From assembly GCA_030053935.1 (NCBI GenBank), contig JASGCU010000002.1, forward strand, positions 9,107 to 73,106: 64,000 nt of DNA. Reading direction: 5' to 3'. Position numbers and translations under genes: made by a program. Source of the DNA: Chitinophagaceae bacterium. GTDB lineage: Bacteria; Bacteroidota; Bacteroidia; Cytophagales; JASGCU01. Positions 6,592 through 57,234 of the stretch are shown here, piece after piece. The notes beneath the pieces are model-generated. The model was not told the origin of the DNA and did no database searches. It worked only from the letters and a program-made list of their open reading frames with translations. How positions within the stretch are numbered: the first letter of the stretch is position 1; every line of letters starts with the position of its first letter.

Positions 6592-6619
6592 AATTAGTAA
6601 CTCATTGATATCATAGAAA

Positions 6620-7612: not shown

Positions 7613-7642
7613 ATCTTTTTTTCTTTTTTTGAGAGAAAAAAT

Positions 7643-7831: not shown

Positions 7832-7864
7832 TGTATTGTTTTTTGAGTATGAGTGTATAATTTA

Positions 7865-8371: not shown

Positions 8372-8374
8372 TTA

Positions 8375-11231: not shown

Positions 11232-11343
11232 CTTTAAGTATATGACAAAGATTTCTCTATGCGAATAGTAGAAAAATAAAAAATGTTTCTCTTTTTTAAT
11301 ATATGAATAATTACAAAAAAATCAATAATACTTATACTTTCAT

Positions 11344-39841: not shown

Positions 39842-39960
39842 AACAATGTTATTTTAGAAGTATGAGTACTAATTTCTCTATAATTTTATAGTGAAAATAA
39901 AATATATTTCACAAACGCAATAATTCAATAAATATTTTTGACCTTTCACAACATTTAGTT

Positions 39961-39987
39961 AAAAGATCCGTATTATTCGGATCTTTT
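39961..39987 (-). terminator. intrinsic terminator/attenuator hairpin between rplL and rpoB
   Basis: Perfect 10-bp stem aaaagatccg / cggatctttt with a 7-nt loop. On the minus strand a GATCCG..CGGATC core is followed by TTTT, 19 nt after the rplL stop. Confidence 0.7.
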
Positions 39988-40005
39988 AAACTAAAAAACA
40001 CATTA

Positions 40006-40389
40006 TTATTTTACTTCTACCTCAGCTCCTAATTCTTCTAATTTGGTTTTTAGTGCAGCGGCTTCGTCTTTTTGTACTCCTTCCTTTAAAGGTTTAGGAG
40101 CATTATCAACAAGATCTTTTGCTTCTTTTAATCCTAATCCTGTCAGATCTTTTACTAGTTTTATAACACCTAATTTATTCGCTCCCGCTGCTTTTAAAAT
40201 CACATCAAAAGATGTTTTTTCAGGTACTGCTGTCGCTGTATTACCACCAGGTGCAATGCCTCCTGCCATTACAACTGGAGATGTAGCTGCCTCTATGCCA
40301 TATTCGTTTTTAAGAATTTTTGCTAATTCATTTACTTCTTTTACTGATAAATTTACTAATTGTTCAGCTATTGCTTTTAAATCTGTCAT
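40006..40389 (-). CDS. rplL: 50S ribosomal protein L7/L12
   Basis: 127 aa. Ala/Gly hinge, ...[12 protein letters not shown]...[12 protein letters not shown]. Confidence 0.97.
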
Positions 40390-40426
40390 TTTAATTATTA
40401 CTTATATTATTATTATTTAAAAATTA

Positions 40427-40954
40427 TTATTTTTCTGACAGTGTTTTTAAAACTCCTGTCAATGTATTATTACCACTCTGAATAGTGGTAACTAACTTTT
40501 TCATCGGGGATTGTAAGAGTGTAACAATATCTCCTACTAACTCATTCTTAGATTTAATATTAAGGAGTATTTCTAAATTTTCTTCCCCAATAAAAAAATC
40601 TGATTCTATGGAAGCAGCCTTAAACGTAGGTCTTTTATTTTTATCTTTCTGTTGAAATTCTTTTATCACTTTTGCAGGTATTTTTGCAGAACTATTGCAA
40701 AAAATAATCCCAGAAAATCCTTTTAACACTTTTTTATTCCATGAAGAATAATCTACATTTTGTGTATCTAATGCTTTTTTTATAATAGTATTTTTAAATA
40801 CTTTATATTCAAGACCATTTTGAAAACAAATACGTCTAAAAGAATTTATTTCTGATACTGTAAATCCTGAAGTATCTGTTACATAAAAATAAGGTGTTTT
40901 TGCAAATTTTTCTTTGAGTTCTTCTATCAAAACTCCTTTTTTTTCTCTGTTCAT
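40427..40954 (-). CDS. rplJ: 50S ribosomal protein L10
   Basis: 175 aa, in the position between rplA and rplL; N-terminus MNREKKGVLIEELKEKF is L10-like. Confidence 0.9.
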   Translation of the reverse strand: MNREKKGVLIEELKEKFAKTPYFYVTDTSGFTVSEINSFRRICFQNGLEYKVFKNTIIKKALDTQNVDYSSWNKKVLKGFSGIIFCNSSAKIPAKVIKEFQQKDKNKRPTFKAASIESDFFIGEENLEILLNIKSKNELVGDIVTLLQSPMKKLVTTIQSGNNTLTGVLKTLSEK

Positions 40955-40959
40955 GTTTA

Positions 40960-41658
40960 TTATATTCCTATTATTGTGTTTTTATCTATTTGAATACTCT
41001 TACTCATAGTACTAGATAAGTAAATACTTTTAAAATATATACCTTTAGAAGAAGATGGTTTTAATCGGGCTACTGTTTGAAGTATTTCTAATGCATTTTC
41101 TTTAATTTTTTCAGATTCAAAGGATGTTTTCCCGATACTTGTATGAATTATTCCTGCTTTATCTATTTTAAAATCTATTTTTCCTGCTTTTACTTCTTTT
41201 ACTGCTTTTCCTACCTCTAATGTTACCGTTCCTGATTTAGGATTTGGCATCAGTCCCCTTGGTCCTAGTATTTTTCCAAGTTTTCCTACTTTTGCCATAA
41301 TAATAGGCATAGTGATTATAACATCTATATCTACCCATCCCCCTTCTATTTTCTTTATATATTCTTCTAATCCTACATAGTCGGCACCAGATTCCCTCGC
41401 TTCATCTTCTTTTTCTGGAGTACATAAAACTAATACTCTTACAGATTTTCCTATTCCATGCGGTAAAGAAACAACTCCTCTTACCATTTGGTCAGATTTT
41501 TTAGGATCCACACCTAATCTCATATCTATATCCACAGAAGAATCAAATTTTGTAAATGTTATTTCTTTTACTATTTTGCAAGCTTCTTCAAGAGAATATA
41601 TTTTATCGGCATCGTATTTTAGAATAGATGTTTTTTGGTTTTTTGTTAATTTTTTCAT
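40960..41658 (-). CDS. rplA: 50S ribosomal protein L1
   Basis: 232 aa. ...[16 protein letters not shown]... L1 signature. Confidence 0.96.
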
Positions 41659-41676
41659 TATTTTTAAAGTATCTAT

Positions 41677-42117
41677 TTAATTCCAAGGTGCTTTTCCGGT
41701 GACAGTAATTCCCATGCTTCTAGCTGTTCCACTTATCATTTTCATAGCAGATTTAAGAGTAAAAGCATTGAGATCGGGCATTTTTATTTCTGCTATTTTT
41801 TGCACTTGATCCCATGTAATGTTTCCTACTTTATTACGGTTTGGTTGCGCAGAACCTAATTTTGATTTACTTGCTTCTAGTATCAGCAGTGGTGCTGGTG
41901 GTGTTTTTACAACAAAATCAAAGGTTTTATCGTTATAAACAGTTATAAGAACTGGTATTAAACTCCCTTTCTTATCCTGAGTACGAGCATTAAATTGTTT
42001 ACAAAACTCCATTATATTTAATCCCTTGCTCCCTAAGGCAGGCCCTACGGGTGGAGATGGGTTTGCTTCTCCTCCTTTTACTTGTAATTTTATATATCCT
42101 GTTATTTCTTTTGCCAT
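41677..42117 (-). CDS. rplK: 50S ribosomal protein L11
   Basis: 146 aa. ...[26 protein letters not shown]... Confidence 0.97.
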
Positions 42118-42131
42118 ATAATTCTTTGGTT

Positions 42132-42683
42132 TTATGATTCTTTTTCTGCTTGTGAGTAATTTAATTCTACTAATGTATTACGTCCAAAAATTTTTACAGT
42201 AACATTTATTTTTTTTCTTTCTTCAAATACTTCTTGCACGGTTGCAAAAAAACCGGTAAAAGGTCCATCTATCACTTTCACAGATTGGCCAGGAGAAAAT
42301 GAGATATTTTGTTTTACCAGGGCTTCCTCTGCTTCTTCCATTTTTCCTAGTATACGATTAATTTCATTTTGTCTTAGTGGAGTTGGATTTTTATCTGTTT
42401 TATCTTTAGATCCAACAAATCCTAAAACGCCAGGTGTATAATTTACTGTATGCAACACCTCGCCATGACTTACATCTGCAAATATAAATATATAACCTCC
42501 AAATATTTTTTTTTCTCTTACATATCTTTTTCCTTTTCTTTCCTCATATACTTTTTCAACTGGTATAAGTATTTCGGAAATATAATTTTGCAATTTTTGT
42601 CTACTAATTTCTGTTTCCAAAAATGTTTTTATTTTCTTTTCTTGCCCTGTAATTGCTTTTATTGCATACCAATTTAACTGCAT
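42132..42683 (-). CDS. nusG: transcription termination/antitermination factor NusG
   Basis: 183 aa. NGN domain [13 protein letters not shown] and [24 protein letters not shown]. Confidence 0.95.
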
Positions 42684-42700
42684 CGTAATTATAGTTTACA

Positions 42701-42892
42701 TTAAACGGTGTTATAAATAAATTGTAAAATTTGTTCAAAAACTCTATCTACAATACCTACTAATATTGCAAAAATTATAGCAGATATAAGTATCATAGTA
42801 GCGTTTTTTCGTAAAGAAATATAACTAGGCCAAGTAACTTTTGTCATCATTTCTTCGTATGAAGATATAACAAAAAATTTTATTTTATTCAT
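42701..42892 (-). CDS. secE: preprotein translocase subunit SecE
   Basis: 63 aa from the Met at 42892 (MNKIKFF...EMMTKVTWPS...single TM). The longer ORF-track version (to 42976) overlaps tRNA-Trp and is rejected. Confidence 0.85.
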   Translation of the reverse strand: MNKIKFFVISSYEEMMTKVTWPSYISLRKNATMILISAIIFAILVGIVDRVFEQILQFIYNTV

Positions 42893-42926
42893 ATTTTTTT
42901 TAGTAACCAATATATTGAAAGAGAAG

Positions 42927-42999
42927 CACGGGAGGAGGGACTCGAACCCCCAACCTACGGTTTTGGAGACCGGCACTCTACCAATTGAGCTACGCCCGT
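42927..42999 (-). tRNA. tRNA-Trp (anticodon CCA)
   Basis: Hand-folded cloverleaf: acceptor ACGGGCG/CTCCCGT (one C-U mismatch at 6:67), D arm GCTC-AATTGGTA-GAGT, anticodon loop CTCCAAA, T arm GGGGG-TTCGAGT-CCCTC. Canonical tuf-tRNATrp-secE position. Confidence 0.85.
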
Positions 43000-43033
43000 A
43001 TCTCAGATTTTATACCGAGTATATATCTCTTTT

Positions 43034-44221
43034 TTAGTCAAGTATTTCCGTTACTTGTCCTGCACCTACTGTCCTTCCTCCTTCTCGTATTGCAAACCTA
43101 AGACCTACTTCTAATGCTATTTTACTGAGTAGTTTTACGTCTATAGTAAGATTGTCTCCTGGCATAACCATTTCTCTTCCACTTGGAAGTGTTATTTCTC
43201 CTGTAACGTCTGTGGTTCTAAAATAAAATTGAGGTCTATATTTGTTAAAAAATGGAGTATGTCGTCCTCCTTCTTCTTTAGACAAAACGTATACTTCTGC
43301 TTTAAAATGAGCATGTGGTTTTACGGATCCTGGCTTACATATAATCATACCGCGGCGTATTTGAGTTTTTTCAATACCACGTAATAATAATCCTACATTA
43401 TCGCCTGCTTCACCTCTATCTAATATCTTACGAAACATTTCTACCCCAGTAACGGTAGATTTTAATCCTTCTGCTCCCATTCCTACTATTTCTACTGTTT
43501 CCCCACTATTAATAACTCCTCTTTCTATTCTTCCTGTTCCTACTGTTCCACGACCTGTTATAGAGAACACGTCTTCCACAGGAAGTAAAAAATCTTTTTC
43601 AGTAGAACGAACTGGTTGTGGAATATAAGAATCTACTTGTGCCATGAGTTCTTCTATTTTAGAAACCCAATTTGCATCTCCATTCAGTCCTCCTAAAGCA
43701 GAGCCGCGAATAACAGGTATTTTATCCCCGGGGAACTTATAAAATGTAAGAAGATCTCTTATTTCCATTTCTACGAGGTCCAATAATTCGGGGTCATCTA
43801 CTAAATCTACTTTATTCATAAAGACAACTATTGCTGGTACTCCTACCTGTCTTGCAAGAAGAATATGTTCCCTTGTTTGAGGCATAGGTCCGTCTGTTGC
43901 TGCTACTACTAATATTGCTCCGTCCATTTGTGCAGCTCCAGTAACCATATTTTTCACATAATCAGCGTGACCAGGACAGTCAACGTGTGCATAGTGTCTA
44001 TTATTTGTTTGATATTCTACGTGAGCAGTATTGATGGTAATACCTCTTTCTTTTTCTTCGGGTGCATTATCTATAGAGGAAAATTCTCTTACTTCTGCTA
44101 ATCCTTTTTTTGCTAATACTTTAGTTATAGCGGCGGTAAGGGTAGTTTTACCGTGATCTACGTGTCCTATTGTTCCGATGTTGACATGCGGTTTATTTCG
44201 GTTAAAATTTTCTTTAGCCAT
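43034..44221 (-). CDS. tuf: elongation factor Tu
   Basis: 395 aa. [24 protein letters not shown] motifs. Confidence 0.99.
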
Positions 44222-44322
44222 TATTTGATATTTTGATATATGTTAAAATATGAATTGAGTTATAATAATTTAAAAATATATTTATATATTTATAGTAAAA
44301 AAAATACAAATATTTAAATATG

Positions 44323-44394
<72 letters not shown>

Positions 44395-44441
44395 ATTCAT
44401 CTTACAAAAAGATATAAAAATGCTCTTTTATTAGTATTAAG

Positions 44442-44514
44442 AGCGGACAACGAGGTTCGAACCCGCGACCTGCAGCTTGGAAGGCTGCCGCTCTACCATC
44501 TGAGCTATGTCCGC
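44442..44514 (-). tRNA. tRNA-Gly (anticodon TCC)
   Basis: Hand fold: acceptor GCGGACA/TGTCCGC, anticodon stem GCAGC/GCTGC with loop CTTCCAA, T loop TTCGAAC. Confidence 0.88.
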
Positions 44515-46274: not shown

Positions 46275-46310
46275 TATTATTACTTTTTTTAAGTGTGATT
46301 ATAATATAAA

Positions 46311-46687
46311 TATAGGTCTATAAGCCGGATTCTGTTCTCTTGAGAGTTTCTATCATTTATCTGGGTTATTTGTTGCCAAACAACTCTATCGACCTACCCA
46401 ATCCGAATTTATTTGAAACAAATAAACAAGCGAGCAGCTTTTTTTCGGATCCTATTTGGTCTTTCAACTCGTAAGGTTTATCATGCTTTTGATATCACTA
46501 TCAAAACGGTAAGCTCTTACCTCACCTTTTCACCCTTATCTTAAAAAGACGGTTTTCTTTTCTGTGATACTGTCTGTTATTTTGTTTTGATGACAAAATA
46601 CCTTCCCGTTAGGAAGTACGATGCTCTGTGTTGTCCGGACTTTCCTCTTCATTTATGAAGCGATAGAACGACCTATATTTAATATTA
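46311..46687 (-). ncRNA. rnpB: RNase P RNA, bacterial type A
   Basis: The minus strand contains GAGGAAAGTCCGGAC (P4 5' strand), GATAAGGGTGAAAAGGTGAGGTAAGAGCTTACC (P10-P12 region) and ACAGAATCCGGCTTATAG (P4 3' strand). Terminal P1 pairing tataggtc/gacctata. Ends approximate. Confidence 0.92.
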
Positions 46688-47090: not shown

Positions 47091-48131
47091 TTATTTAATT
47101 TTTTTTATGCTATAAATAGATGCTACGGCTCCAAATGAGAGAGTTGCTAAGTTCACTCTAAAGGTATCATCTACATAAGATCCTTTTTGTATCAGAGTTT
47201 GATTATTGTATCTCTCACTAGGGTTCATAAAATCAGTAGTCATATGTTGGTATTGAAATTCGGTAAACAGATGCCATTGTTTATTGATGGGTATTTTTAT
47301 CCCTATTCCTGCAAAAATGCTGATATTTATAGATTTTCTGAGGGTGGCTTCTTGTTTCAGTAAGTTTTCTCCGAATATATTTTGGATTTTTCCTCCGCCT
47401 GCTCTGTTTTGTAGGTCTGCTGTTGATGCGAATAGGTAATTAAGGTTTGCTCCGATGTTTATATAGGGTTGTATTTTTTTAAGACTTATAGTATATTCTA
47501 AAAATAATGGGGTTTGGAGTATATAATCTGTTTCTGTGAGGTCTGTTTTGTAATCTATAGGTATTGATATGATAAATTGTTGCCACATAAATCCTATTCC
47601 TGTTCCTATGGTGATGTTTTTTAGAATATCTTTTTTTATGAAAAGATTTATTCCTGCTCTGAAAGAAGGTTGAATTTGTTTTTGAATTTCGTTGGTGTTG
47701 TGTAATCCGAAAGAAGCGTATGAAATGATATGTGGATAGTTTCCTATGGCTTTCATTCCTACCTTGAGTATTGGTTTGTATCTAAAAGTTTCTTTTAAAA
47801 AAAAGAGTTCTTTTTTATCTATATCGGGATTAAATTCGTGTTCTTTATCCCTTTGGAGGATTTTTTTCATCCATTTGTCTGCTTCTGCATATTTGTCTTC
47901 ATATAAAAGAGACATTATTACGATTTTAGTGGCATTTATAAGTTCTTCTTTTGTTAATACATTTTTAGAATCGTTGAGGCAGTTTTCGAGTTTTTTAGGT
48001 ATTTCAGATATATGTCCAGTGATATAAAGTTTTTCTGCGTCTTCTATTGTTTGAATGCAAGATATTTGTTCTTGTGCAAATGCATTATAAATAAAATGAA
48101 GGGATAGAAATGTTATTGCTAATGTTCTCAT
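47091..48131 (-). CDS. outer-membrane beta-barrel protein (OMP_b-brl_2-like) with N-terminal helical/TPR-like domain
   Basis: 346 aa. Signal peptide MRTLAITFLSLHFIYNAFA-QEQ, an about 110-aa helical region, then alternating-hydrophobicity strands (ITIGTGIGFMWQQF, IQPYINIGANLNYLFA, ISIFAGIGIKIP, WHLFTEFQYQHM). Confidence 0.65.
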   Translation of the reverse strand: MRTLAITFLSLHFIYNAFAQEQISCIQTIEDAEKLYITGHISEIPKKLENCLNDSKNVLTKEELINATKIVIMSLLYEDKYAEADKWMKKILQRDKEHEFNPDIDKKELFFLKETFRYKPILKVGMKAIGNYPHIISYASFGLHNTNEIQKQIQPSFRAGINLFIKKDILKNITIGTGIGFMWQQFIISIPIDYKTDLTETDYILQTPLFLEYTISLKKIQPYINIGANLNYLFASTADLQNRAGGGKIQNIFGENLLKQEATLRKSINISIFAGIGIKIPINKQWHLFTEFQYQHMTTDFMNPSERYNNQTLIQKGSYVDDTFRVNLATLSFGAVASIYSIKKIK

Positions 48132-48140
48132 ATAGTTTAT

Positions 48141-51100
48141 TTATTGTTTATTAGGACATGTTTTTTCGTATAAAATATTTTCTCCTACATATTGTTTCCA
48201 TTCATTTTGGGTGAGGTTTCTGGATTTTGCACAGAGTTTATCTGCTATAAAATCAGGTTCTATCGGCCATACTTTCATAAAATCATCGTTACTTCCTGTG
48301 ATAATTTGTTTTGTTTTTTCATGAAAAATTCCATCGAATACCCATTCTTCTGATTCTTTTAATACTATTGGTGGGTCAGATATGTATTGCAACACCCATA
48401 GTTTTGTAGTATGATCTAATCCAGTGCTGATTAATAACGAGTTGTCAGAATTAAATTCTATATTGCTTACTCTGCTGGAGTGAGCATTTATATCAGAAAA
48501 TAATTTATTTGTTTCCATATCCCATATATATATTTTTCCGGATTTATCACCAAAAGCGATATATTTTTTATTTTTACTCATTGATACGCATGTAATAGCG
48601 TTGTTATTCACAGTATTTTTTGCGATAGGGATTGTGTATTTATAACGGAGGGTGTTTTTTTCTGTTATATCCCATATCATAATTTTTCCATCTGCAGAGC
48701 CGCTTATTAACATTTTATCATCACTGCTCATATCTATAACTTTTACATCTTCATGTTCTTTTAGTATTTCTATTGGTGGGATTGTAGAGTTTTCATAGTT
48801 GTATATGCGAATATATTGATCTTCTCCGATAGATATAAATTGTGGTTTATTTTTGAAGAATACTATATCATTAATATTTCCGTGGTGTTCTTCTAGTATG
48901 GTTGATTTTTCTGTTTTTAGGTTTACGAGTATTATATTTTCTTTAGTTCCTACGGCGAGGTATTTATCATCTTTACTAATAGCGAGAAATTTATTTTCGA
49001 ATTTATTTTCTAAAATTACTTTATAGCTTCTTTTTGGGTCTTGTATATTCCATTTTATTATTTTTCCATCACCTCCTGTGGAATAAACAGAATTTCCTTC
49101 ATTTGTTGCGACTATACTGTATACTCCAGATCCTCTAGAATGCCCTTTCCATCTTATAATATCTATTCCTTCGGTTGTTTGCCAAGCGTTAAATAATCCC
49201 ATGTATACATCGGGGTTATATTTTTTATAAGAATATTTGCGGTCGTAGAGAAATGCTTGTTTTGCAATAGCAGATTTTAGTTCGGGGTCTCTTATTTGTT
49301 CTACTCTCACGGCAAGAGATTGTGCGAGAGATTGGAATCTTAGTTTTTCGGCAATTTCTCTTTCTCGGCGGGCTTCGTTTGCACTTTGTTCTGCTTGTAA
49401 TTGTTGTATTCGGGCTTCTTCTTCTTTTTGTTGAGCAATGAGTGCGGATTTTTGGGCTTCTTCTTCTTTTTGTTGGGCAATTTTACTTTGCCGAGTAGCT
49501 TCTTCTTTTTGTTCTTGTGCTATTTTCGTTTGTTTTTCGGCATATAAGCGAGCTTCTTGTGCTTTTTTAGTTTCTTCTTCTGCTTTTTTTTTGGATATTT
49601 CTGCAGCTTTTGCAAAGCTAATTGCTTTTTCAGATTCTATCACTGCTTTTTTTCTTTGGATTAGTGCTTCTTTTGTAGCTTCTGTAGATATTTTTAACTG
49701 ATCTCTGGAATAGATAACTAATCCTACTAAAACTATTGCAACAGCAGCGCATATTATAGATGTTATTCTAAAAGCTCTAATTTTATTTTTTTGTTTTATG
49801 AGTTTTATTCTTTGTTCTTCTTCAAATTCTCTTTGTGAGGTTTCTAAAAACACCATAACTCTTTCGTATGCTTTATGGTATCTTCGTCCCCAAAAGGGGG
49901 TAGGATTTATTTCTTCTTTCCAGTTGAGAGCGGCTTGTAGATGAGGCATTTTCCAGAGGTCTCCTTCTCCTGTTACAAATTTTTCAGCGGCATCGGATAA
50001 TCGCAAATACATATCTACGGATTTTGATTCTTCTTCTAACCATACTTTTAGTCTTGTCCATATTCTCATAATACTTTCATGTGAAATATCTATAAGAGTT
50101 TCTCCATCAATAGGGTAGTTATGGGGAGGCATGAGAAGAGATCTGGATGGGTCTCTGAATAGATTGATGACGTTTATAACTTTTATTGGGGTAGTATTAG
50201 CTATTTTTGCGATGGTTTTTAGTTTTGTTGGTCTTCTAATCCCTTTATTTTCTGCGTTTTTTTCGGTGAGGGTTTTGAATAGTACTTCACATATTTTTTT
50301 TTCTTCTTGAGTAAGAGAATCGTATGCCTCATTGGCATGTTCGGATAGGGCTTCTTTTACGGTACCAATTGCTATGTATTCAGATATGTCTATTGGATCA
50401 TTTGTATGTCCTTTAGTATCATTCCAATATTGCCATGTGCGCATCAGGGCATGTTGGAGGACAGGGAGTTGGTCGGGGTTATCGCCGATATCATTCAAAA
50501 GTTGTTGTGTGAGCCGAGGAGTTATAGATCCTCCGACGACTAAAATAGGACCTTCTATGGCTAGTTTTTTTTGTTCTCGATTCATTTGTGGTATAAGATA
50601 ATGGCTTTCGTTTATTTTCTGTGTGAGATTTGGGAAAAAAGCACATTCACCTATAAAATCGGAACGCATTGTTAATGCAATATAAATAGATTCATTTTGA
50701 ATTTCTAATGCTTCGGTGATGAGGGATATAAAGTTATTCGCTTCTTCTTGTGAATAGGCTGAATTATCAGTAGTTCTGTATCTAAAAATTTCTTCAAACT
50801 GATCTATAAGTATAAAATAGTTTGTGTTTTTATCTTTTTTTAAATAATTAATAGCATCTACAAGTCCTAATGAGCTATTTCTTAATATGGAAGAGATGAC
50901 TGTTTGTTTTGTCATTTTTTCTTCATTTGATTTTTTTTTATACTCGGGATGTAGAGAGCTGATAAGTGCTTCTGCCATATTTTCTATTGGTGATATACCG
51001 GGTCTAAAAATAATAATATCCCAAGAAGCGCCTGCTTTTGTAACAAATCCTCCGTATAAAATTGGAAGAAGTCCACAATACATAAGAGAAGATTTTCCAC

Positions 51101-51296
51101 TACCGGATGATCCTAGTATTGCTACAAATCTATGTTCTGCTAATCTCATAAGTACTTCATCACTTTGTCCTTCTCTTCCAAAAAATAAATGAGATTCGTT
51201 AATAGTAAATGGTCGTAATCCTGGAAATGGGTTTATTCCCTTTACTTGAATAGATATATTTTCCGTAGTGTACGATGTCGTTTTTGGATTATTCAT
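48141..51296 (-). CDS. nSTAND-type P-loop NTPase - single TM helix - coiled coil - WD40 repeat protein
   Basis: 1051 aa. N-terminus NPFPGLRPFTINESHLFFGREGQSDEVLMRLAEHRFVAILGSSGSGKSSLMYCGLLP (Walker A) and YFILIDQFEEIF (Walker B), as in the novel-STAND-1 family. Hydrophobic ITSIICAAVAIVLVGLVIY (DNA 49712-49768). Lys/Glu/Gln coiled coil. At least 5 WD40 units (e.g. LISGSADGKIMIWDI, IAFGDKSGKIYIWDM, STGLDHTTKLWVL). Confidence 0.8.
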   Translation of the reverse strand: MNNPKTTSYTTENISIQVKGINPFPGLRPFTINESHLFFGREGQSDEVLMRLAEHRFVAILGSSGSGKSSLMYCGLLPILYGGFVTKAGASWDIIIFRPGISPIENMAEALISSLHPEYKKKSNEEKMTKQTVISSILRNSSLGLVDAINYLKKDKNTNYFILIDQFEEIFRYRTTDNSAYSQEEANNFISLITEALEIQNESIYIALTMRSDFIGECAFFPNLTQKINESHYLIPQMNREQKKLAIEGPILVVGGSITPRLTQQLLNDIGDNPDQLPVLQHALMRTWQYWNDTKGHTNDPIDISEYIAIGTVKEALSEHANEAYDSLTQEEKKICEVLFKTLTEKNAENKGIRRPTKLKTIAKIANTTPIKVINVINLFRDPSRSLLMPPHNYPIDGETLIDISHESIMRIWTRLKVWLEEESKSVDMYLRLSDAAEKFVTGEGDLWKMPHLQAALNWKEEINPTPFWGRRYHKAYERVMVFLETSQREFEEEQRIKLIKQKNKIRAFRITSIICAAVAIVLVGLVIYSRDQLKISTEATKEALIQRKKAVIESEKAISFAKAAEISKKKAEEETKKAQEARLYAEKQTKIAQEQKEEATRQSKIAQQKEEEAQKSALIAQQKEEEARIQQLQAEQSANEARREREIAEKLRFQSLAQSLAVRVEQIRDPELKSAIAKQAFLYDRKYSYKKYNPDVYMGLFNAWQTTEGIDIIRWKGHSRGSGVYSIVATNEGNSVYSTGGDGKIIKWNIQDPKRSYKVILENKFENKFLAISKDDKYLAVGTKENIILVNLKTEKSTILEEHHGNINDIVFFKNKPQFISIGEDQYIRIYNYENSTIPPIEILKEHEDVKVIDMSSDDKMLISGSADGKIMIWDITEKNTLRYKYTIPIAKNTVNNNAITCVSMSKNKKYIAFGDKSGKIYIWDMETNKLFSDINAHSSRVSNIEFNSDNSLLISTGLDHTTKLWVLQYISDPPIVLKESEEWVFDGIFHEKTKQIITGSNDDFMKVWPIEPDFIADKLCAKSRNLTQNEWKQYVGENILYEKTCPNKQ

Positions 51297-51306
51297 AATT
51301 TTGTGT

Positions 51307-52794
51307 TTATTTAGATTCTATAGTATCTATAAAAGGAAATAATATACTTTGGTAAAAATCGCTGTTGTTATAAGTAACGTGTAGTAATTTGTTTTCAAAT
51401 TTTTTAGGGTCGCTATTATTGTTAATGTAAATTCCGTGTTTTTTTGTAGAATATGTTCCTTCAAAAGCTGGGGTCCTGTGGATATCTTGTATTTTGGATA
51501 AAACCCATTGTTCGTTTATTTTTCCATATATTATAAAAGAAGCATCACATTGCTGTAGGTATATTCTATGTAGATTTCGCATTTCTATTATATTTGTTTC
51601 AAAATTAGGTGTAATAATATGAAAGTCCATATCTTTAAAAAACTTTACTATAGGAATAGCAATATCGGTATCTATTTTGTCAAAAATAACATAAATACTT
51701 TTTTTTTTTTCTATAGCAGATGTTTGGTGTCTTTTTTTTTTAAATTGCTCACCTAAAAAGTGTATTTCTTTTTTTATTAATTCTTTAAGTTCGGCAATAT
51801 TTCCTTGGAATATATCTAAAAAATAGTCTGTATTAATATCTGTTTTTATTCTATCTATAAAAATATCTTGTTTTTCATAGTGGTTTTGAAAATTTTGTGG
51901 TATCCATATTATTTTTTTTAAAAAGTGATTTGTTTGTTTTCGTATATTTTGAGAATAGGATTCTACTATGTTGTATTGTAGTTCTGCAATAGATATTTTA
52001 TTTTCTTGTGCTTCTGTTCCATAATATTCGCCTATTAGATGGATAGACATAATGCTTTTTTGTATATTCTCTATAATAAATGATTCAATTTCTTCATTTT
52101 TTTGGGGTAAGGGAGTTGTTGGTAAAACATTATACCCATAACGTACCAGTTCTCGTTTTATAGTATCTCTTTGATTTACAAGGTCATGTTCTGTAATTGA
52201 TAAGTATATTGTTTTTTCTTTTTCAAGTTCTTCTTTTTCTGGATATGTATTTTTTGATTGTTGATTTTCGTGTTTTAAATTATGGTAAATATATTTTATA
52301 TGGTTTGCAATATCTAACATGTTCATCCAGTAAGGGTTTTTTGACCCTTTTCCTAAAAAAGGAATAAGTTCTTCTATTTCCCTTGTAATGTTATTTATTA
52401 TATAAAATTCATATTTTTGTGTGTTTTTATACTCATTTAGGAATACATCTTCTTCTATTGGTTTTTTTAATACTTCAATTATTGGATATAATTTTTCAAG
52501 AGAGCGGTTTTCTTCTGTGTGGTATTTTTCTCCAAATTCTTTTATTTTTTGAACAAGAGTATTTTTTTTATTATAACCAGTGGATACAATAATTATACAA
52601 ACAAGTGTGTTTTTCCATGTTTCTTTTTCAATAAAAGCATCAGATACTAGTTTTATTGTAAGTGGGACAGGCATTATTTGTATCAAATAAGATCTTAAAA
52701 TATCCTCAAAACTTTCTATCCATAGAATTTCTTCTTTTTTAGTGTTTCTTTCTGGTTCTGTATAACATATAATTATTTCTGTTCCTATCTGCAT
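51307..52794 (-). CDS. hypothetical protein with three tandem TIR/DUF4062-like modules
   Basis: 495 aa. A thrice-recurring strand-acidic-helix-strand pattern (TEIIICYTEPE.., TIYLSITEHDLVNQRDTIKRELVRYGYNVLP.., SIYVIFDKIDTDIAIPIVKFFKDMDFHIITP..). The fold assignment is inference from pattern only. Confidence 0.45.
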   Translation of the reverse strand: MQIGTEIIICYTEPERNTKKEEILWIESFEDILRSYLIQIMPVPLTIKLVSDAFIEKETWKNTLVCIIIVSTGYNKKNTLVQKIKEFGEKYHTEENRSLEKLYPIIEVLKKPIEEDVFLNEYKNTQKYEFYIINNITREIEELIPFLGKGSKNPYWMNMLDIANHIKYIYHNLKHENQQSKNTYPEKEELEKEKTIYLSITEHDLVNQRDTIKRELVRYGYNVLPTTPLPQKNEEIESFIIENIQKSIMSIHLIGEYYGTEAQENKISIAELQYNIVESYSQNIRKQTNHFLKKIIWIPQNFQNHYEKQDIFIDRIKTDINTDYFLDIFQGNIAELKELIKKEIHFLGEQFKKKRHQTSAIEKKKSIYVIFDKIDTDIAIPIVKFFKDMDFHIITPNFETNIIEMRNLHRIYLQQCDASFIIYGKINEQWVLSKIQDIHRTPAFEGTYSTKKHGIYINNNSDPKKFENKLLHVTYNNSDFYQSILFPFIDTIESK

Positions 52795-52815
52795 TTATGT
52801 GTATTTATAAATGAT

Positions 52816-55800
52816 TTAAATTATTTGAATGGTATTTTCAAATACTTTTAGATGTTTGGTTTCTAAAAATATTGCGGTTACTATCTCTTTATATTTTCCT
52901 GCTGCTTCAAAAAAGTCTACTGCGGGTAGCACTAAAAGTTCTGTTTTTTCTTGTGCAATATATCTATGTTGATTCGCTTGATATTCTAGTATGGTATCCA
53001 ATCCTATAACAGAACCTGAGTATAAAGTATCTAATATTTGTTCGCTATCATTATATAAGAGAACTTCTCCATGTAACAATATGTAAATAAACTCATTTTT
53101 TTTTATGTTTTGATCTACGAGTATTTTTTTTTCGTTTAGTATTACGTATTTAAAAGATTCTATTATATTTGCAAGAATGTCTTCGGGAATATGTTTAAAT
53201 AGGAAAATTTTGCTGATAAATAATATTTTTTCGGATAGGAGCATTATTTTTTTTTTGGTATTTTCTTTCCCATAGGATTGTATTTCTGTACGTGTGTTAT
53301 TTGATAATAAAACTTTATCTAATTCTTTTTTGATGTTTATATCTAATAATTGAGAATAGTATTCGTATGCTCGTTTATCCTTACTATAAATTATATAAGC
53401 GCTTGTCTCGTATATTAATTTGTTTTTATGGAATATACAAGCAGATATACTTTGATTCAGAGGTACGTGTTCCATTTCTTTTAGTGCTAATAGTGCTAAT
53501 ACTTTTATCCAGTGGTTTATATTATTGTATCCTCTGTTTATGATAGATAATAAAATATCTTCATTATTTTTAAAATGTATTATTGGATAATATGTTGATA
53601 ATTTGTCTACTTTATTAGATATATGGTTATCATCAAAAATAATAAATGCTACTTCTTTTAATTCTACGTCTAAAAAAATATCTAGCATTTCTAATGCGAA
53701 AGTTATACCTTCTATATTTTTTTCATTGATATTTTCTTTTACTAAAATAACAGATTGAGTATCGTATAGTAGTATCATGAGATTAAATATTTGCTCATTA
53801 TTTTTCTCATTTTCGTTTTTTAATGATTTTATTATTAATCGTGTTAGATATTCTGTTTCTTCGTGATGACGGAATTTTATAAGGGATTGTATGCAATTGA
53901 GATTCCATACTATTTTAGAAAACAGAGATTGAATTTCTGTTTTTATTCGTTCTCTTTGAATTCCTTTTGCTTTATAGTTTAAAAAGCTTAACCAATAAAA
54001 AACTTCATTTACAATAATTTTATCATGAAAATCTGTTTTTTTCCATAATCTATTAACACAATCTTGGTTTCCAATGCGTCCTAATATTTGAACTATGAGA
54101 AGCATGGTTGCTCTATTTTGTTCTGTTCTATAGAAGGCGGCGTCTATCAAATGAACGACGTTTTCTTGAAGTATAAGGGAAGATTTTGCGAGAAGCGAGT
54201 AAGTATGGGTAGAAAGGTTGTCTATAAGTAAATGGTATAATTCGTTGTAGTGTAGAGATGTGGTGCTGATAATGGCTGCTTTTCTTACATCAGGGTCTGA
54301 ATCTTTTAGGAGATCTATGAGTAAGAGCAAATGCTTATCGTCTTTTTTTATTTGTGAAAGCAATTGAGATAAAAATATTTTGTTTTTTTTGTTAGTTGAT
54401 TGTGTTATTTTTTTTGATTCCGTATAATCTAAAAGGTATGATCTATTATGAGCGAGGTATTCTACTAATTTTTTAGATTGTTCTTTTAATACGGGTATTG
54501 TTTCTTTTTCAGCAAAGATTTTAATTTCTTCTAAATAATGGAAATTATTATACTCAAAGCATTTGGTGTATATAAATTCTCTTATTTTTATATTATCAAA
54601 TTCCAAAAGATATATGAGGTATTTTTTATAGAGAATAACATCTATTTTTTCTAATATATTGAGTCCTATAATAGCATTATTGTAGTGATTTTCTTGTAGG
54701 TTCAGAATAATATTATTCATTATATATGCCTCTATATTATTTTTATTGACATTTTCTATTTCTTGTTTTTGAGACATAAGAGACCGCTTAATAGCTATTT
54801 TATATTCATCATACAAGAGTGATGCTAGGATTAATACGGTTACTAAAAGGATAATATTTATGTAAAAATAATGGATAGTTGTAAAAAAATTTAAGGATCC
54901 TAATCCTAATAGTATAATTCCTAAAATAAAACTCGATGATTCATTTACAACTCCTTCTATTCTGGACTGGATGTTTAACCGTATTTTGGGATTTAATGGG
55001 AGAAAACAATTCTTAAAAGAGAGTGTTTCTATGGCATCCTTTGTAGAGCTGCCAAGAACTCTTCCTATAGCAGTAAATAAGAAGAAAAAAAGATAGTCAC
55101 TATCATTTTCTTGATAACCGTATATATGCCCTGTGATAACAGAACCTATACAAAATATGGATAGGACAAAGGGCATAATCATAAGAGATGTTTTTATTCC
55201 AAAATTGGTTAATATATAATCACTGACTGTTGTTTGAATAATAAATGTCATCCCCACGACAGCGGCATCGTAAAAGGATAGAAAAATGGAAAGGTCTTTT
55301 TCTTCTGTGTATCTGATGTCCATCGCTCCTAAATATGCGTTTTCCATCAGCAATTTTGTAGCGGTGGATGCTATGAGAAAAAAACAAAGAATCTTCAAAT
55401 AATTATTACTGAATAAAAAACTATACGATATTTTATTATTTAATTGGGTGCTCTTGTTTTGTATTTTTGTATCTATATTAAAATCTCGAACCAATATAAT
55501 TGAGGTAATAAAGAGGCATAGTATTCCAACCACAGATACATTTAATAGGTTCTCAGTTCTAATGAGGTCAAAATTTTTGAGAAAAGCAATAACCATAAAA
55601 GTAATAAAAGTAGCAGTGAGCTGCCCCGAATCTATCCCTCCTATAAGTCGCTTCGCCGAACGAATATCAAAAATTCTTCCGAAAGCTCCCCAAAAAACTA
55701 AAAATGTTAATGCTTTTATAGGTGATAAAAGAGTAAACATAATAAAGGTTATCCGAACATCACCCGTTAGTTTCAGAATAATCTGTAGTCCGAATACTAA

Positions 55801-56076
55801 TAAAAAAATAAAAAAAAGTATAGTGATAGTTATGGAAGAATATTTTAAGGTATTTTGATAGTGGACAAAGCATAAAGTTCCCATTACTCCTAATACTCCA
55901 CTCACTATTAAAGCAGGAACTAAATATTCTTTCCCTATACTAAGAAGGAATAGAGTTTCTACTCCTACTTGGTACATGGCAATAAATACGCCCATAAAAA
56001 ATCCCATTAAGAGGAGAAGTATGATTTGGTATTGTTGTTCGGGTCTCCCCCCTAAGAATATGATTATTTTTTTCAT
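52816..56076 (-). CDS. TLC (ATP:ADP antiporter)-like MFS membrane domain fused to HEAT repeats and a C-terminal cNMP-binding-like domain
   Basis: 1086 aa. About 11-12 TM in the first 430 aa, with FWGAFGRIFDIRSAKRLIGGIDSG resembling the TLC FW..an.....AKR motif. HEAT-type LLKDSDPDVRKAAIISTTSL. C-terminal FKHIPEDILANIIESFKYVILNEKKILVDQN...FIYILLHGEVLLY...LYSGSVIGLDTIL...TELLVLPAVDFF reads as a CAP-effector (cNMP) fold with an atypical phosphate-binding cassette. Confidence 0.7.
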   Translation of the reverse strand: MKKIIIFLGGRPEQQYQIILLLLMGFFMGVFIAMYQVGVETLFLLSIGKEYLVPALIVSGVLGVMGTLCFVHYQNTLKYSSITITILFFIFLLVFGLQIILKLTGDVRITFIMFTLLSPIKALTFLVFWGAFGRIFDIRSAKRLIGGIDSGQLTATFITFMVIAFLKNFDLIRTENLLNVSVVGILCLFITSIILVRDFNIDTKIQNKSTQLNNKISYSFLFSNNYLKILCFFLIASTATKLLMENAYLGAMDIRYTEEKDLSIFLSFYDAAVVGMTFIIQTTVSDYILTNFGIKTSLMIMPFVLSIFCIGSVITGHIYGYQENDSDYLFFFLFTAIGRVLGSSTKDAIETLSFKNCFLPLNPKIRLNIQSRIEGVVNESSSFILGIILLGLGSLNFFTTIHYFYINIILLVTVLILASLLYDEYKIAIKRSLMSQKQEIENVNKNNIEAYIMNNIILNLQENHYNNAIIGLNILEKIDVILYKKYLIYLLEFDNIKIREFIYTKCFEYNNFHYLEEIKIFAEKETIPVLKEQSKKLVEYLAHNRSYLLDYTESKKITQSTNKKNKIFLSQLLSQIKKDDKHLLLLIDLLKDSDPDVRKAAIISTTSLHYNELYHLLIDNLSTHTYSLLAKSSLILQENVVHLIDAAFYRTEQNRATMLLIVQILGRIGNQDCVNRLWKKTDFHDKIIVNEVFYWLSFLNYKAKGIQRERIKTEIQSLFSKIVWNLNCIQSLIKFRHHEETEYLTRLIIKSLKNENEKNNEQIFNLMILLYDTQSVILVKENINEKNIEGITFALEMLDIFLDVELKEVAFIIFDDNHISNKVDKLSTYYPIIHFKNNEDILLSIINRGYNNINHWIKVLALLALKEMEHVPLNQSISACIFHKNKLIYETSAYIIYSKDKRAYEYYSQLLDINIKKELDKVLLSNNTRTEIQSYGKENTKKKIMLLSEKILFISKIFLFKHIPEDILANIIESFKYVILNEKKILVDQNIKKNEFIYILLHGEVLLYNDSEQILDTLYSGSVIGLDTILEYQANQHRYIAQEKTELLVLPAVDFFEAAGKYKEIVTAIFLETKHLKVFENTIQII

Positions 56077-56118: not shown

Positions 56119-57234
56119 TTAATCCAATAGAGAATCTACATTTTTATAAGGGGTATGAAATGCCTCTGATACGGCTTTATACACAACATGAGAATGGATA
56201 ATATTAAGTCCTAATTTGAGTTCTTTTTGGTCTTTACATGCTTGTTTCCATCCTTTATTTGCTAAATTAACCGCATAAGGAATGGTAGCATTAGTAAGTG
56301 CAATGGTAGATGTATAAGGAACTGCTCCTGGCATATTAGCAACACAATAATGAATTACTCCACTTACTTCATAAATAGGGTTTTGATGGGTGGTAGGATA
56401 GGTAGTTTCAAAACATCCTCCTTGGTCAACAGCAACATCTACCATAACCGTTCCTTTTTTCATAAACGCAAGCATCTCTTTGGTAATAAGCTTGGGGGCT
56501 TTTGCTCCCGGTATAAGAACAGCTCCTATAATCAGATGATGATCTTTGATAAGTTCTCGGATGTTATATTCATTACTCATAAGGGTCTTTACATTTTTTG
56601 GCATTATATCATCTAAATAACGTAATCTTTCCAAACTTATATCAAGTATAGTAACATCTGCGTTAAAACCTGCTGCCATCTTTGCTGCTTCTGTTCCTAC
56701 CACACCTCCTCCTATGATTAATACTTTTGCGGGTCGTACGCCGGGGACTCCTCCAAGTAAAATTCCCATTCCTCCCATTGGTTTTTCTAAATATTTTGCA
56801 CCTTGTTGGATAGACATTCTCCCCGCTACTTCAGACATTGGTACGAGGAGCGGAAGTGATTTGTCTTCTTTTTCGACTGTTTCGTAGGATAAACATACTG
56901 CTCCATTATCTATCATAGCTTTAGTAAGTTTTTGATTGGATGCAAAATGAAAATATGTAAATAACAGATGGTTTTTTTTTACTAATGTATATTCTTCTTC
57001 AATGGGTTCTTTTACTTTTATAATCATTTCAGATTTTTCATATACGGAATCTATAGTAGGTAATACAGATGCTCCTCCTATCCGATAATCTTCATCACTA
57101 TAACCACTTCCCGAACCTGCTGACTCTTGAACGTACACATCATGTCCTCTTTTTATTAATTCTGCAACACCACTCGGAATAGCGCCTACTCTATTCTCAT
57201 TGTTTTTTATTTCTTTTGGTATTCCTATAATCAT
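56119..57234 (-). CDS. ald: alanine dehydrogenase
   Basis: 371 aa. MIIGIPKEIKNNENRVG..., NAD motif VLIIGGGVVGTEAAKMA, ...VDVAVDQGG... Confidence 0.92.
   Translation of the reverse strand: MIIGIPKEIKNNENRVGAIPSGVAELIKRGHDVYVQESAGSGSGYSDEDYRIGGASVLPTIDSVYEKSEMIIKVKEPIEEEYTLVKKNHLLFTYFHFASNQKLTKAMIDNGAVCLSYETVEKEDKSLPLLVPMSEVAGRMSIQQGAKYLEKPMGGMGILLGGVPGVRPAKVLIIGGGVVGTEAAKMAAGFNADVTILDISLERLRYLDDIMPKNVKTLMSNEYNIRELIKDHHLIIGAVLIPGAKAPKLITKEMLAFMKKGTVMVDVAVDQGGCFETTYPTTHQNPIYEVSGVIHYCVANMPGAVPYTSTIALTNATIPYAVNLANKGWKQACKDQKELKLGLNIIHSHVVYKAVSEAFHTPYKNVDSLLD

Follow-up and report, generated by a model that had tools for sequence, protein, structure and literature searches.

A 64,000-nucleotide stretch of a Chitinophagaceae bacterium genome (the window; contig JASGCU010000002.1, assembly GCA_030053935.1) encodes a 1051-residue protein, the product of gene C, which is best explained as a bitopic inner-membrane STAND (NLR-like) NTPase that would act as an outside-in receptor within a nucleotide-signalling module of the Cytophagales. 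We place the probability of this reading at roughly 0.6. Gene C (48141..51296, minus strand), as delimited by the open reading frame list, its Pfam domains and an AlphaFold2 model, comprises an nSTAND1 NTPase, a membrane helix, a stalk and a WD40 propeller. The protein is an ordinary example of the widespread and already catalogued nSTAND1+TM+BetaPropeller layout rather than a protein of a new kind, and the four-gene context in which it is found in Cytophagales appears to be so far undescribed.

Gene C encodes an nSTAND1 NTPase with intact P-loop motifs

Gene C starts with ATG. The NTPase and its helical module occupy aa 23-441 (49974..51230, minus strand) and match the Pfam nSTAND1 family (PF20703) with an E-value of 5e-92 and a score of 309.9 bits (cut-off 27.1 bits) over model positions 1-372 of 379. 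The first-pass annotation had assigned the protein to the nSTAND1-type NTPases from an opening block, PFPGLRPFTINESHLFFGRE...RFVAILGSSGSGKSSLMYCGLLP, and a Walker B block, YFILIDQFEEIF; these lie at aa 23-78 and aa 160-171, inside the Pfam match, which bears the assignment out. Gene C is a member of the nSTAND1 family with its P-loop motifs intact: Walker A (GSSGSGKSS, aa 62-70) and Walker B (ILIDQFEE, aa 162-169) are both complete, and residues G62, G65, G67, K68, S69, D165, E168 and E169 are unchanged in 38 homologues. Between the module and the membrane helix lies a conserved, predicted cytoplasmic extension (aa 442-510; 49767..49973, minus strand), delimited from the AlphaFold2 model, identity and charge statistics, which closes with the K/R-rich flank RIKLIKQKNKIRAFR. 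Mean pairwise identity is 73% in the NTPase module and 75% in the extension. No sequence match of gene C to solved STAND structures was found, and its product would be predicted to oligomerise in an NTP-dependent manner.

A single helix predicted to cross the inner membrane

A single transmembrane helix, ITSIICAAVAIVLVGLVIY (aa 511-529; 49710..49766, minus strand), is indicated by hydropathy and positional conservation. The hydrophobic segment had been noticed after the NTPase by the first reading of the sequence, which placed it two nucleotides away, at 49712-49768. Its mean Kyte-Doolittle hydropathy is 2.72 in a 19-residue window and its summed Hessa-scale value is -2.4 kcal/mol. Because the second-best hydrophobic window anywhere in the product scores only 1.21, gene C contains exactly one candidate helix; an N-terminal signal sequence is absent, and the first 21 residues are hydrophilic. 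Across the family the hydrophobic core is uncharged and 21.5 ± 1.1 residues long. The 15-residue flanks hold 6.7 K/R on the N-side compared with 2.7 on the C-side in the homologue set, and the N-side flank is the more positive one in 254 of 262 homologues (Wilcoxon p 3.5e-43). The segment itself is only 38% identical between homologues, yet its position and hydrophobicity are kept. Since position, and not sequence, is conserved across hundreds of homologues, the segment is no chance feature, and variable sequence combined with fixed position and hydrophobicity is typical of a lipid-facing helix. Identity falls along the protein, from 73-75% in the cytoplasmic module to 34-37% in the predicted extracytoplasmic part.

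In the AlphaFold2 model, an unbroken helix of 191 residues (aa 477-667) spans the membrane segment, with aa 477-510 running into it without interruption. Hydropathy, charge bias and this structure model, on which the topology call rests, make it very probable that the NTPase (aa 1-510) is cytoplasmic, that one helix crosses the membrane and that the propeller is periplasmic. The same three lines agree with the earlier proposal that the NTPase and the propeller lie on opposite sides of the membrane, and we infer that the propeller acts as a sensor. That proposal would have fallen if the segment were a buried helix of the STAND helical domain, and the model places it outside that domain, exposed and not packed into it. 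A buried or peripheral segment, leaving the whole protein cytoplasmic like a classical NLR, is accordingly a highly improbable arrangement. Model confidence leaves it some room, with pLDDT values of 73-82 around the segment and low values in the first half of the stalk, as in aa 1-89. It is at odds with a hydropathy far above that of every other window, with the uncharged core and its strongly basic N-side, with a sequence that is free to vary while position and hydrophobicity are kept, and with the place of the segment in the exposed model helix; the catalogue of Kaur et al. 2021 (PMC8195603) likewise annotates the segment as TM.

The architecture is widespread and already catalogued

The helix had at first been taken for a special insertion into a family of normally soluble proteins. 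A survey of homologue architectures, suggested at the same time as a check, overturns this view and identifies the TM helix as the rule. Among close homologues, 117 of 120 have the helix, the three exceptions being truncated sequences; so do 142 of the 149 representatives at 50% identity and eight of ten distantly related nSTAND1 proteins of Streptomyces, cyanobacteria and Burkholderiales. Effectively all 149 representatives carry it; the two "helix-less" cases have Ala/Gly-rich helices just below the threshold. The NTPase is matched by 40,021 cluster representatives at E below 1e-3.

The layout is already contained in published source data: Kaur et al. 2021 (PMC8195603; eLife 10:e70394, Figure 2-source data 1) enter "nSTAND1+TM+BetaPropeller" 278 times, often preceded by a "TIR+DrHyd" gene. 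Their entries include Cytophagales proteins of similar length (e.g. HAA18104.1, 1014 aa) and a Flammeovirgaceae operon written as '12xTM+cNMP->?->nSTAND1+BetaPropeller', and their main text is silent on the membrane helix, the resulting topology, the stalk and the outer-membrane gene. Gene C shares with these entries the Pfam family, the domain order including the helix, and the type of upstream partner, and it almost certainly belongs to the catalogued two-gene module with an upstream TIR/DrHyd(DUF4062)-type gene, a pairing shared by most of its relatives. An experimental study of any such membrane-spanning member was not found in the literature searched.

Stalk, propeller and the neighbouring outer-membrane protein

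Beyond the membrane segment the model helix continues as a predicted periplasmic stalk (aa 530-667; 49296..49709, minus strand), recognised from the AlphaFold2 helix and its heptad pattern. The Lys/Glu/Gln coiled coil of about 130 residues that had been described here stands as a helical stretch, and its length becomes 138 residues, reaching aa 667. Ala recurs at each seventh residue over about 17 heptads, with position 0 being Ala in 96% of cases and position 3 being Q, A or N. Stalks in homologues are either 116 or 123 residues long, and thus differ by whole heptads. At 0.15 nm per residue, 138 helical residues would measure about 20 nm, which is comparable to the width of the Gram-negative periplasm. 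The Ala-rich heptad core recalls the alanine zipper of Lpp.

Two cap helices (aa 668-711) and a WD40 propeller (aa 712-1012) follow (48261..49295, minus strand; AlphaFold2, Foldseek and Pfam WD40, E 1e-29). The WD40 array had been given at least five blades; the model resolves 28 strands in seven blades, with pLDDT mostly 84-94. Foldseek matches it to the WD40 domains of G-beta, LIS1 and PkwA with target-normalised TM-scores of up to 0.90, and its surface is weakly conserved (37%). Conservation also marks a C-terminal tail (aa 1013-1051; 48144..48260, minus strand) with the motif LCxxxxRNMxxxEWxxYVGxxIxYxxTC. The cysteines C1022 and C1047 are each 95% conserved and occur in an all-or-none manner (both in 134 sequences, neither in 10, a single one in 0); the stalk is devoid of Cys and the propeller almost so. 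Judging from this covariation, the tail is probably stapled by a C1022/C1047 disulfide. The paired cysteines and the whole-heptad steps in stalk length both fit the predicted periplasmic placement.

Gene D (47091..48131, minus strand) begins 9 nt downstream of gene C and encodes a 346-residue outer-membrane protein with a helical N-terminal domain and a beta-barrel (Pfam OMP_b-brl_2, 30.5 bits), a signal-peptide-like N-terminus and weak similarity to PorG. Its synteny holds in 76 of 80 related Cytophagales loci, and the short gap, the barrel match and the synteny together uphold the earlier suggestion of a co-transcribed outer-membrane barrel beside gene C. Next to the Runella homologue, the gene that follows encodes a TonB-dependent receptor.

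These features bear on a reading in which gene C serves inside-out signalling or as a structural tether, the nucleotide state of the NTPase setting the position or assembly of the stalk and propeller. The propeller would then dock on the outer-membrane protein, forming a TolA/TonB-like bridge driven by the STAND module without proton-motive force. A post-helix stretch of about periplasm width, a conserved stalk length that changes in whole heptads, an outer-membrane gene in the adjacent and syntenic position and the TonB-dependent receptor gene after the Runella homologue would all suit a bridge. As in TolA, TonB and Lpp, a long Lys/Glu/Ala-rich helical spacer of approximately periplasm length carries an end domain that could touch outer-membrane proteins. 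STAND NTPases, however, are known as switches and not as motors, the outer-membrane partner is missing from most non-Cytophagales contexts, and weak conservation of the propeller surface is more in keeping with a variable sensor than with a fixed docking module. Moreover, the anchor helix lies in the middle of the protein (aa 511) and not at its N-terminus as in TolA and TonB, any energy or switch input would have to come from the NTPase, and a TolQR/ExbBD partner is absent from the conserved four-gene module. We regard the inside-out or tether reading as unlikely.

Four genes in conserved order in the Cytophagales

Gene B (51307..52794, minus strand) is located 10 nt upstream of gene C and encodes 495 residues with three TIR-like alpha/beta domains, as indicated by Pfam, AlphaFold2 and Foldseek, including DUF4062 at aa 196-275 (34.9 bits; cut-off 24.7). 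PF13271 and PF13676 are found in its homologues. The three alpha/beta domains are resolved in the AlphaFold2 model, for which Foldseek returns TIR and BcmB with weak E-values and probabilities of up to 1.0. A gene B homologue is located directly upstream of the STAND gene at 75 of 80 Cytophagales loci, at five of five distant metagenome loci (profile E-values 1e-90 to 1e-129) and on two plasmids; on a Caballeronia plasmid, the protein directly upstream is a TIR protein with a weaker resemblance to gene B (E 1e-38). DUF4062 has been described as a TIR-like NADase fold (preprint 10.64898/2026.05.01.722283). Among 92 gene B homologues, the candidate catalytic positions hold Asp in 67 and Glu in 17 (aa 271), and Gln in 87 and Glu in 4 (aa 273), and the equivalent position of the N-terminal TIR-like domain is variable. 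None of the candidate positions of the TIR-like domains showed a catalytic Glu that is clearly conserved in this set.

Gene A (52816..56076, minus strand) encodes a 1086-residue protein composed of an NTT (TLC-type nucleotide transporter), HEAT repeats and a cyclic-nucleotide-binding domain, as identified by profile search and by Pfam HEAT_2 and cNMP_binding. A profile built from 17 homologues matches the NTT structures 9j3n (E 3.7e-15) and 9j3j (E 1.4e-11) in the PDB, as well as the cyclic-nucleotide-binding domains of PKG/PKA (E 1e-24). By profile and Pfam, gene A is the same three-domain fusion as the NTT-HEAT-cNBD proteins, which the accessible passages of Major, Embley & Williams 2017 (PMC5381601) present as widespread and uncharacterised; those passages carry no mention of a linkage to a STAND/TIR pair or an outer-membrane protein. 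Gene A is syntenic in 72 of 80 Cytophagales loci, and the order A-B-C-D is kept in about 70 of the 80, with flanks that are not kept.

Defence or envelope signalling

Kaur et al. 2021 treat the family as conflict systems, and an anti-phage or conflict role for a protein of the same topology is the most serious competing account. Under this account, the periplasmic propeller would detect a part of the invader on its way through the envelope, for example a tail or ejection protein, upon which the NTPase would oligomerise and the TIR/DrHyd partner would drain NAD+/nucleotides, leading to abortive infection. The nSTAND1 family was defined within counter-invader systems (PMC8195603), its relatives carry caspase, CHAT or TIR fusions or follow EACC1, and DUF4062 proteins are NADase defence effectors. 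In addition, Caballeronia plasmids carry the two-gene pair next to IS3 and DUF4231, distant plasmid copies adjoin IS elements, integrases and DUF4231, and a caspase+TIR gene follows the pair at locus L085.

The Cytophagales copy, in contrast, appears to have been inherited vertically and lies in a region of core genes. In the window it is flanked by alaDH, RNase P RNA, tuf and secE-nusG-rplKAJL, and neither a defence island nor a mobile element with patchy spread was found around this copy, its gene order being kept in most Cytophagales loci. Many Cytophagales genera share the four-gene synteny and the protein length, which, along with the high identity of the NTPase, is unlike fast-turnover immune sensors. 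The PADLOC models give no real match for genes A-D: a search with the four proteins returned only a 19-residue P-loop match to mad3 (E 8e-4) for one of them and nothing for the other three. The positions at which gene B would be expected to carry its catalytic Glu are instead D/Q or variable. The defence account seems possible but doubtful, and we lean, weakly, towards envelope-to-cytoplasm nucleotide signalling rather than a mobile anti-phage system. For a non-defence role as such, we see the chances as evenly balanced.

A possible outside-in relay

In the preferred reading, the gene C protein would be an outside-in receptor, a logic to which we give an even chance. The propeller would be held close to the outer membrane by a presumably rigid stalk, of which it forms the tip, and the input might be ligand binding at the propeller or an altered contact with the co-encoded outer-membrane protein. 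The signal would pass through the register-preserving stalk and the unbroken cytoplasmic-TM helix to the NTPase, which would change its nucleotide state and then oligomerise at the membrane, and the NTPase oligomer may organise the three-domain TIR-like partner encoded by gene B.

Soluble STAND/NLR proteins (bacterial Avs, including DUF4062-Avs2, plant TIR-NLRs such as RPP1, and animal Apaf-1/NWD1/TEP1) share with gene C a P-loop STAND switch, C-terminal WD40/TPR repeats and a TIR-like partner domain, together with the expected logic of ligand-triggered oligomerisation. They are cytoplasmic single polypeptides with their repeats folded back onto the NTPase, whereas the repeats of gene C would lie across the membrane and its TIR-like protein is a separate gene. 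Since the propeller could not fold back onto the NTPase in this topology, the relay would be without precedent in canonical STAND proteins. Closer in layout are the bitopic N-in/C-out bacterial receptors PknD and PknB of M. tuberculosis and ToxR/CadC, among which PknD joins a kinase through a membrane helix to an extracellular beta-propeller. Gene C resembles them in its large cytoplasmic signalling module, its one helix and its predicted extracytoplasmic sensor, which is a propeller in PknD as well; it differs in that its module is a STAND NTPase and not a kinase or DNA-binding domain, and in the long alanine-heptad stalk ahead of the propeller.

Implications

The window does not uncover the architecture, which had already been tabulated, but it provides a clean and conserved example, present in single copy, whose partners (a TIR-like protein, a nucleotide transporter and an outer-membrane protein) are defined. 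To our knowledge, the STAND/NLR proteins studied so far sense their ligands in the compartment of the NTPase itself, and their autoinhibition depends on the sensor folding back onto the NTPase. A sensor positioned beyond the membrane in a very large family would require a different relay, a question that could become testable in cultivable Cytophagales, e.g. Fulvivirga, Marinoscillum and Chryseotalea. More speculatively, and with the odds against it, the TIR/DrHyd and membrane-spanning nSTAND1 pair may have become fixed in the Cytophagales within a vertically inherited trans-envelope module, in which the barrel and the propeller, kept near the outer membrane by a stalk of quantised length, would inform the STAND switch beyond the inner membrane of events in the envelope or periplasm, and the TIR-like partner and the NTT-HEAT-cNMP-binding transporter would lead on to nucleotide signalling or transport. 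If true, this would give the NLR-like switches their first demonstrated case of signalling through a membrane and of linking both membranes, in the service of physiology and not immunity.

Gene C is predicted to span the membrane once, with the NTPase in the cytoplasm

Gene C (48141-51296, minus strand) was called as an ORF of 1051 aa, in which Pfam assigns aa 23-441 to the nSTAND1 NTPase (E = 5e-92; 309.9 bits against a cut-off of 27.1) and aa 714-1025 to many WD40 and beta-propeller models. The two blocks from which the first-pass annotation had recognised the family, the N-terminal NPFPGLRPF...GSSGSGKSS and the Walker B motif ILIDQFEE, are both found and show no variation across 38 aligned homologues. 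The hydrophobic segment described in that annotation is also present, although its DNA coordinates had been placed 2 nt off: ITSIICAAVAIVLVGLVIY occupies aa 511-529, corresponding to 49710-49766 on the minus strand. The Kyte-Doolittle mean of this segment is 2.72 over 19 residues. Since the next-best window of the protein, located in the P-loop domain, reaches only 1.21, gene C has one candidate membrane helix, neither zero nor two.

An AlphaFold2 model built from the 38-sequence alignment (mean pLDDT 73.8; poor at aa 1-89 and in the first half of the stalk) encloses the segment in an unbroken helix from aa 477 to 667, followed by two short helices, 28 strands and two C-terminal helices. The propeller has seven blades (aa 712-1012, pLDDT mostly 84-94), and G-beta, LIS1 and the WD40 domain of bacterial PkwA are structural matches of the model in the PDB; Foldseek with the whole model returned generic WD40 propellers only. 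The segment might alternatively be a buried helix of the STAND helical domain, or one of an even number of helices that would leave both halves in the cytoplasm. In the model it does not pack into the helical domain of the NTPase, and both alternatives were rejected on hydropathy, the continuous modelled helix and the charge statistics of its flanks.

Topology was judged from family statistics on 262 homologues with a helix. The uncharged helix core measures 21.5 +/- 1.1 residues; the 15 residues on its N-side hold on average 6.7 K/R (net +5.0), and the 15 on its C-side 2.7 (net -0.1). In 254 of the 262 the N-side exceeds the C-side in basic residues; in 7 the two sides tie, and in 1 the order is reversed (Wilcoxon p = 3.5e-43). 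Because of this charge bias, the lack of an N-terminal signal sequence in gene C and the requirement of the NTPase for cytoplasmic nucleotide, the orientation is read as N-in/C-out. The split between cytoplasm and periplasm that had been proposed for gene C is therefore well supported in silico by the single helix, the charge bias and the continuous modelled helix, with a predicted cytoplasmic NTPase and a predicted extracytoplasmic C-terminal half. The cytoplasmic module is conserved far more than the remainder of the protein, with mean pairwise identities of 73% for the NTPase and 75% for the pre-helix extension, against 38% for the helix, 34% for the stalk and 37% for the propeller.

In the stalk (aa 530-667; 49296-49709, minus strand), which runs through about 17 heptads, one heptad position is 96% Ala and the position three residues further along is Q/A/N. 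The stalks of 38 homologues come in two lengths only, 116 and 123 residues, exactly one heptad apart. The heptad pattern and the whole-heptad length change fit an extracytoplasmic C-terminal half, as do the length of the helix and the distribution of cysteines. In the model, 138 helix residues follow the membrane segment; at 0.15 nm per residue they would extend for about 20 nm, close to the width of a Gram-negative periplasm. Cysteines are absent from the stalk and almost absent from the propeller. Two occur in the C-terminal tail (aa 1013-1051; 48144-48260, minus strand), within the motif LCxxxxRNMxxxEWxxYVGxxIxYxxTC; both are present in 134 sequences, both are missing in 10 and a single one is found in none, one apparent exception having its first Cys just beyond the search window. 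This all-or-none pattern is what would be expected of a putative disulfide. A motif of the form CxxxxR[ND]hTxxEWxxY...C, its two cysteines kept or lost together, is found repeatedly at the C-terminus of nSTAND1-WD40 proteins, in organisms ranging from Bacteroidota to Streptomyces (Streptomyces locus L089, 4689-8402).

A membrane helix is the rule among nSTAND1 relatives

The first-pass annotation had regarded nSTAND1 proteins as normally soluble, a premise that is incorrect because the helix is the rule in close and distant homologues. Exactly one helix lies at the same place in 117 of the 120 closest homologues, the remaining three being truncated sequences. When the NTPase alone was searched exhaustively against 1.84 billion cluster representatives, 40,021 matched at E of 1e-3 or better, 8,029 of them at 1e-30 or better. 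The best 149 of these, with lengths of 592 to 1805 aa and WD40 or TPR C-terminal parts, include 142 with one helix at aa 475-630 and five with additional helices. Two, the high-GC homologues P0200 and P0214, were scored helix-less at a hydropathy threshold of 1.8; inspection proved this wrong, both having an Ala/Gly-rich helix just under the threshold and behind an Arg-rich flank (RRRRR).

The distant sample comprised ten plasmid-borne relatives from other phyla, 25-43% identical. In eight, a single helix follows the NTPase match closely, located where the match ends or up to about 100 residues beyond: proteins from Streptomyces (HTH-fused), Acaryochloris (WD40), Gloeothece (CHAT-fused), Nostoc (caspase-fused), Runella and Hymenobacter, and two from Caballeronia, one fused to TIR and one unfused. 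The Chlorohelix FGE-type protein and a short Microchaete protein lack it. Among the relatives sampled, the membrane helix is thus the rule and no insertion peculiar to gene C.

The architecture has been catalogued in supplementary tables. In Kaur et al. 2021, nSTAND1 appears a single time in the main text, with no discussion of a membrane helix, while Figure 2-source data 1 lists 'nSTAND1+TM' 412 times and 'nSTAND1+TM+BetaPropeller' 278 times (PMC8195603). Its entries include 'TIR+DrHyd-> nSTAND1+TM+BetaPropeller' from Cytophagales (HAA18104.1, 1014 aa) and 'CASPASE+nSTAND1+TM+BetaPropeller' from actinobacteria and cyanobacteria. The Flammeovirgaceae operon given there as '12xTM+cNMP->?->nSTAND1+BetaPropeller' is the operon of the window, its helix missed by the annotation. 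Some STAND proteins were predicted to have periplasmic sensor domains in a PNAS 2024 paper on DGR targets. Full-text searches for transmembrane STAND proteins, periplasmic WD40 domains and this operon returned no discussion, and the literature searched contained no text analysing the topology, stalk or mechanism of nSTAND1+TM proteins. Since the split topology is a standard feature of a very large architecture that has already been tabulated, gene C is no new kind of protein. The four-gene Cytophagales module, on the other hand, has apparently not been described so far.

Gene C belongs to a conserved four-gene module

The conserved unit consists of exactly four genes (47091-56076, minus strand) separated by gaps of 21, 10 and 9 nt. 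A genome-collection scan with the single gene C protein as query found no relatives; an alignment-based scan yielded 80 related loci in Cytophagales and neighbouring Bacteroidota, with gene A present in 72, gene B in 75 and gene D in 76, and with the same gene order in nearly all of these. None of the genes that flank the module in the window is conserved in the 80 loci.

Gene A (52816-56076, minus strand) encodes an NTT/TLC-type nucleotide transporter with HEAT repeats and a cyclic-nucleotide-binding domain. Its profile matches the NTT structures 9j3n and 9j3j and the cyclic-nucleotide-binding domains of PKG/PKA, and Pfam concurs. The accessible part of Major et al. 2017 (PMC5381601) describes this fusion family as widespread and uncharacterised, and no mention of linkage to STAND, TIR or outer-membrane genes was found in it. 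Gene A is syntenic with the TIR-like protein, the membrane-spanning STAND and the outer-membrane protein in 72 of the 80 loci. Beside a distant TIR-like/STAND pair in locus L082, a divergently transcribed gene (6008-8257, minus strand) encodes RyR, TPR-S and adenylate/guanylate cyclase domains, which may be relevant to the cyclic-nucleotide-binding domain of the Cytophagales module.

Gene B (51307-52794, minus strand) encodes three TIR-like alpha/beta domains according to Pfam DUF4062 and AlphaFold2, and its homologues additionally carry TIR_2. The protein is 100% identical to one from an NCBI MAG labelled Chitinophagaceae bacterium. In Foldseek, the TIR domains of plants, SARM1 and SPARTA matched weakly, as did BcmB, and the first domain has a weak profile match to plant TIRs. 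DUF4062 has been shown to be a TIR-like NADase with a catalytic Glu (2026 preprints, including 10.64898/2026.05.01.722283). Across 92 homologues the expected position of this residue in the DUF4062 domain reads S-[VI]-[VI]-[D/E]-[IL]-Q-N, and the N-terminal TIR-like domain has no fixed residue at the corresponding position. Because the candidate catalytic positions read D/E and Q, the activity of gene B is uncertain, and its sequence suggests that it may be a non-catalytic scaffold or have altered chemistry. The B-C pair persists outside Cytophagales and neighbouring Bacteroidota: in five of five distant metagenome contigs, the gene directly upstream of the STAND gene, and often overlapping it, is a full-length homologue of gene B (profile E 1e-90 to 1e-129), and weaker gene B-like proteins (E 1e-38 and 4e-17) occupy this position on Caballeronia and Hymenobacter plasmids.

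Gene D (47091-48131, minus strand) encodes a signal peptide, a helical N-terminal domain and an OMP_b-brl_2 barrel, and a PDB profile search with it gave no match. Another link to an outer-membrane protein is seen in L087, a Runella rosea plasmid, where a TonB-dependent receptor gene begins 25 nt after a helix-bearing homologue (5977-11794). That homologue lacks an upstream TIR-like gene and is preceded by STAS/anti-sigma-antagonist and anti-sigma-kinase-like genes.

NCBIfam has no meaningful match for any of the four proteins. With the NTPase as query, a sequence search of the PDB matched ABC ATPases and only through the P-loop. This similarity is probably the source of 'EcfA2' and similar database names of homologues, and nothing in our analysis backs them. 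A sigma-70 promoter and terminator scan of the operon found fewer promoter-like sites than shuffled sequences, and Bacteroidota use other promoters.

A possible outside-in receptor

With its observed domain order, single helix, charge bias, TIR-like gene pairing and four-gene synteny, gene C could act as an outside-in receptor. We infer that a register-keeping stalk positions the propeller close to the outer membrane, where it would bind a ligand or the periplasmic domain of gene D, and that the change would run down the continuous helix to the highly conserved juxtamembrane region. The NTPase would then switch and, within the membrane plane, assemble into an oligomer that would arrange the TIR-like partner, gene B. 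In Apaf-1 and Avs the sensor folds back on the NTPase, whereas the sensor of gene C cannot, and its mechanism of autoinhibition must therefore differ. Clustering is one obvious candidate; another is that a dimeric or trimeric stalk rotates or moves like a piston.

For the output, immunity and conflict on one side and a domesticated physiological signal in Cytophagales on the other appear about evenly balanced. The associations of the family with caspase, TIR and EACC1, and its plasmid and IS contexts, argue for conflict. The Cytophagales copy points instead to a domesticated signalling role: it shows strict synteny and length, 73% NTPase identity and a core-genome location, the catalytic residues are doubtful, and the PADLOC defence-system models gave no match. 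In the window (about 30% GC) the module is flanked by core genes, with alanine dehydrogenase (56119-57234) on one side and, on the other, RNase P RNA, a NuoN/Mrp-type subunit and a standard cluster (38138-44514, minus strand) of tRNA-Gly, tRNA-Thr, tuf, tRNA-Trp, secE, nusG, rplK, rplA, rplJ and rplL, followed by a long ORF that is probably rpoB. The bacterial class A RNase P RNA (46305-46679, minus strand; Rfam RF00010, 257 bits, full length) sits in the 816-nt gap between gene D and the NuoN/Mrp-like gene. The literature searched contains no experimental study of a membrane-spanning STAND, and the four-gene Cytophagales module offers concrete partners for one.
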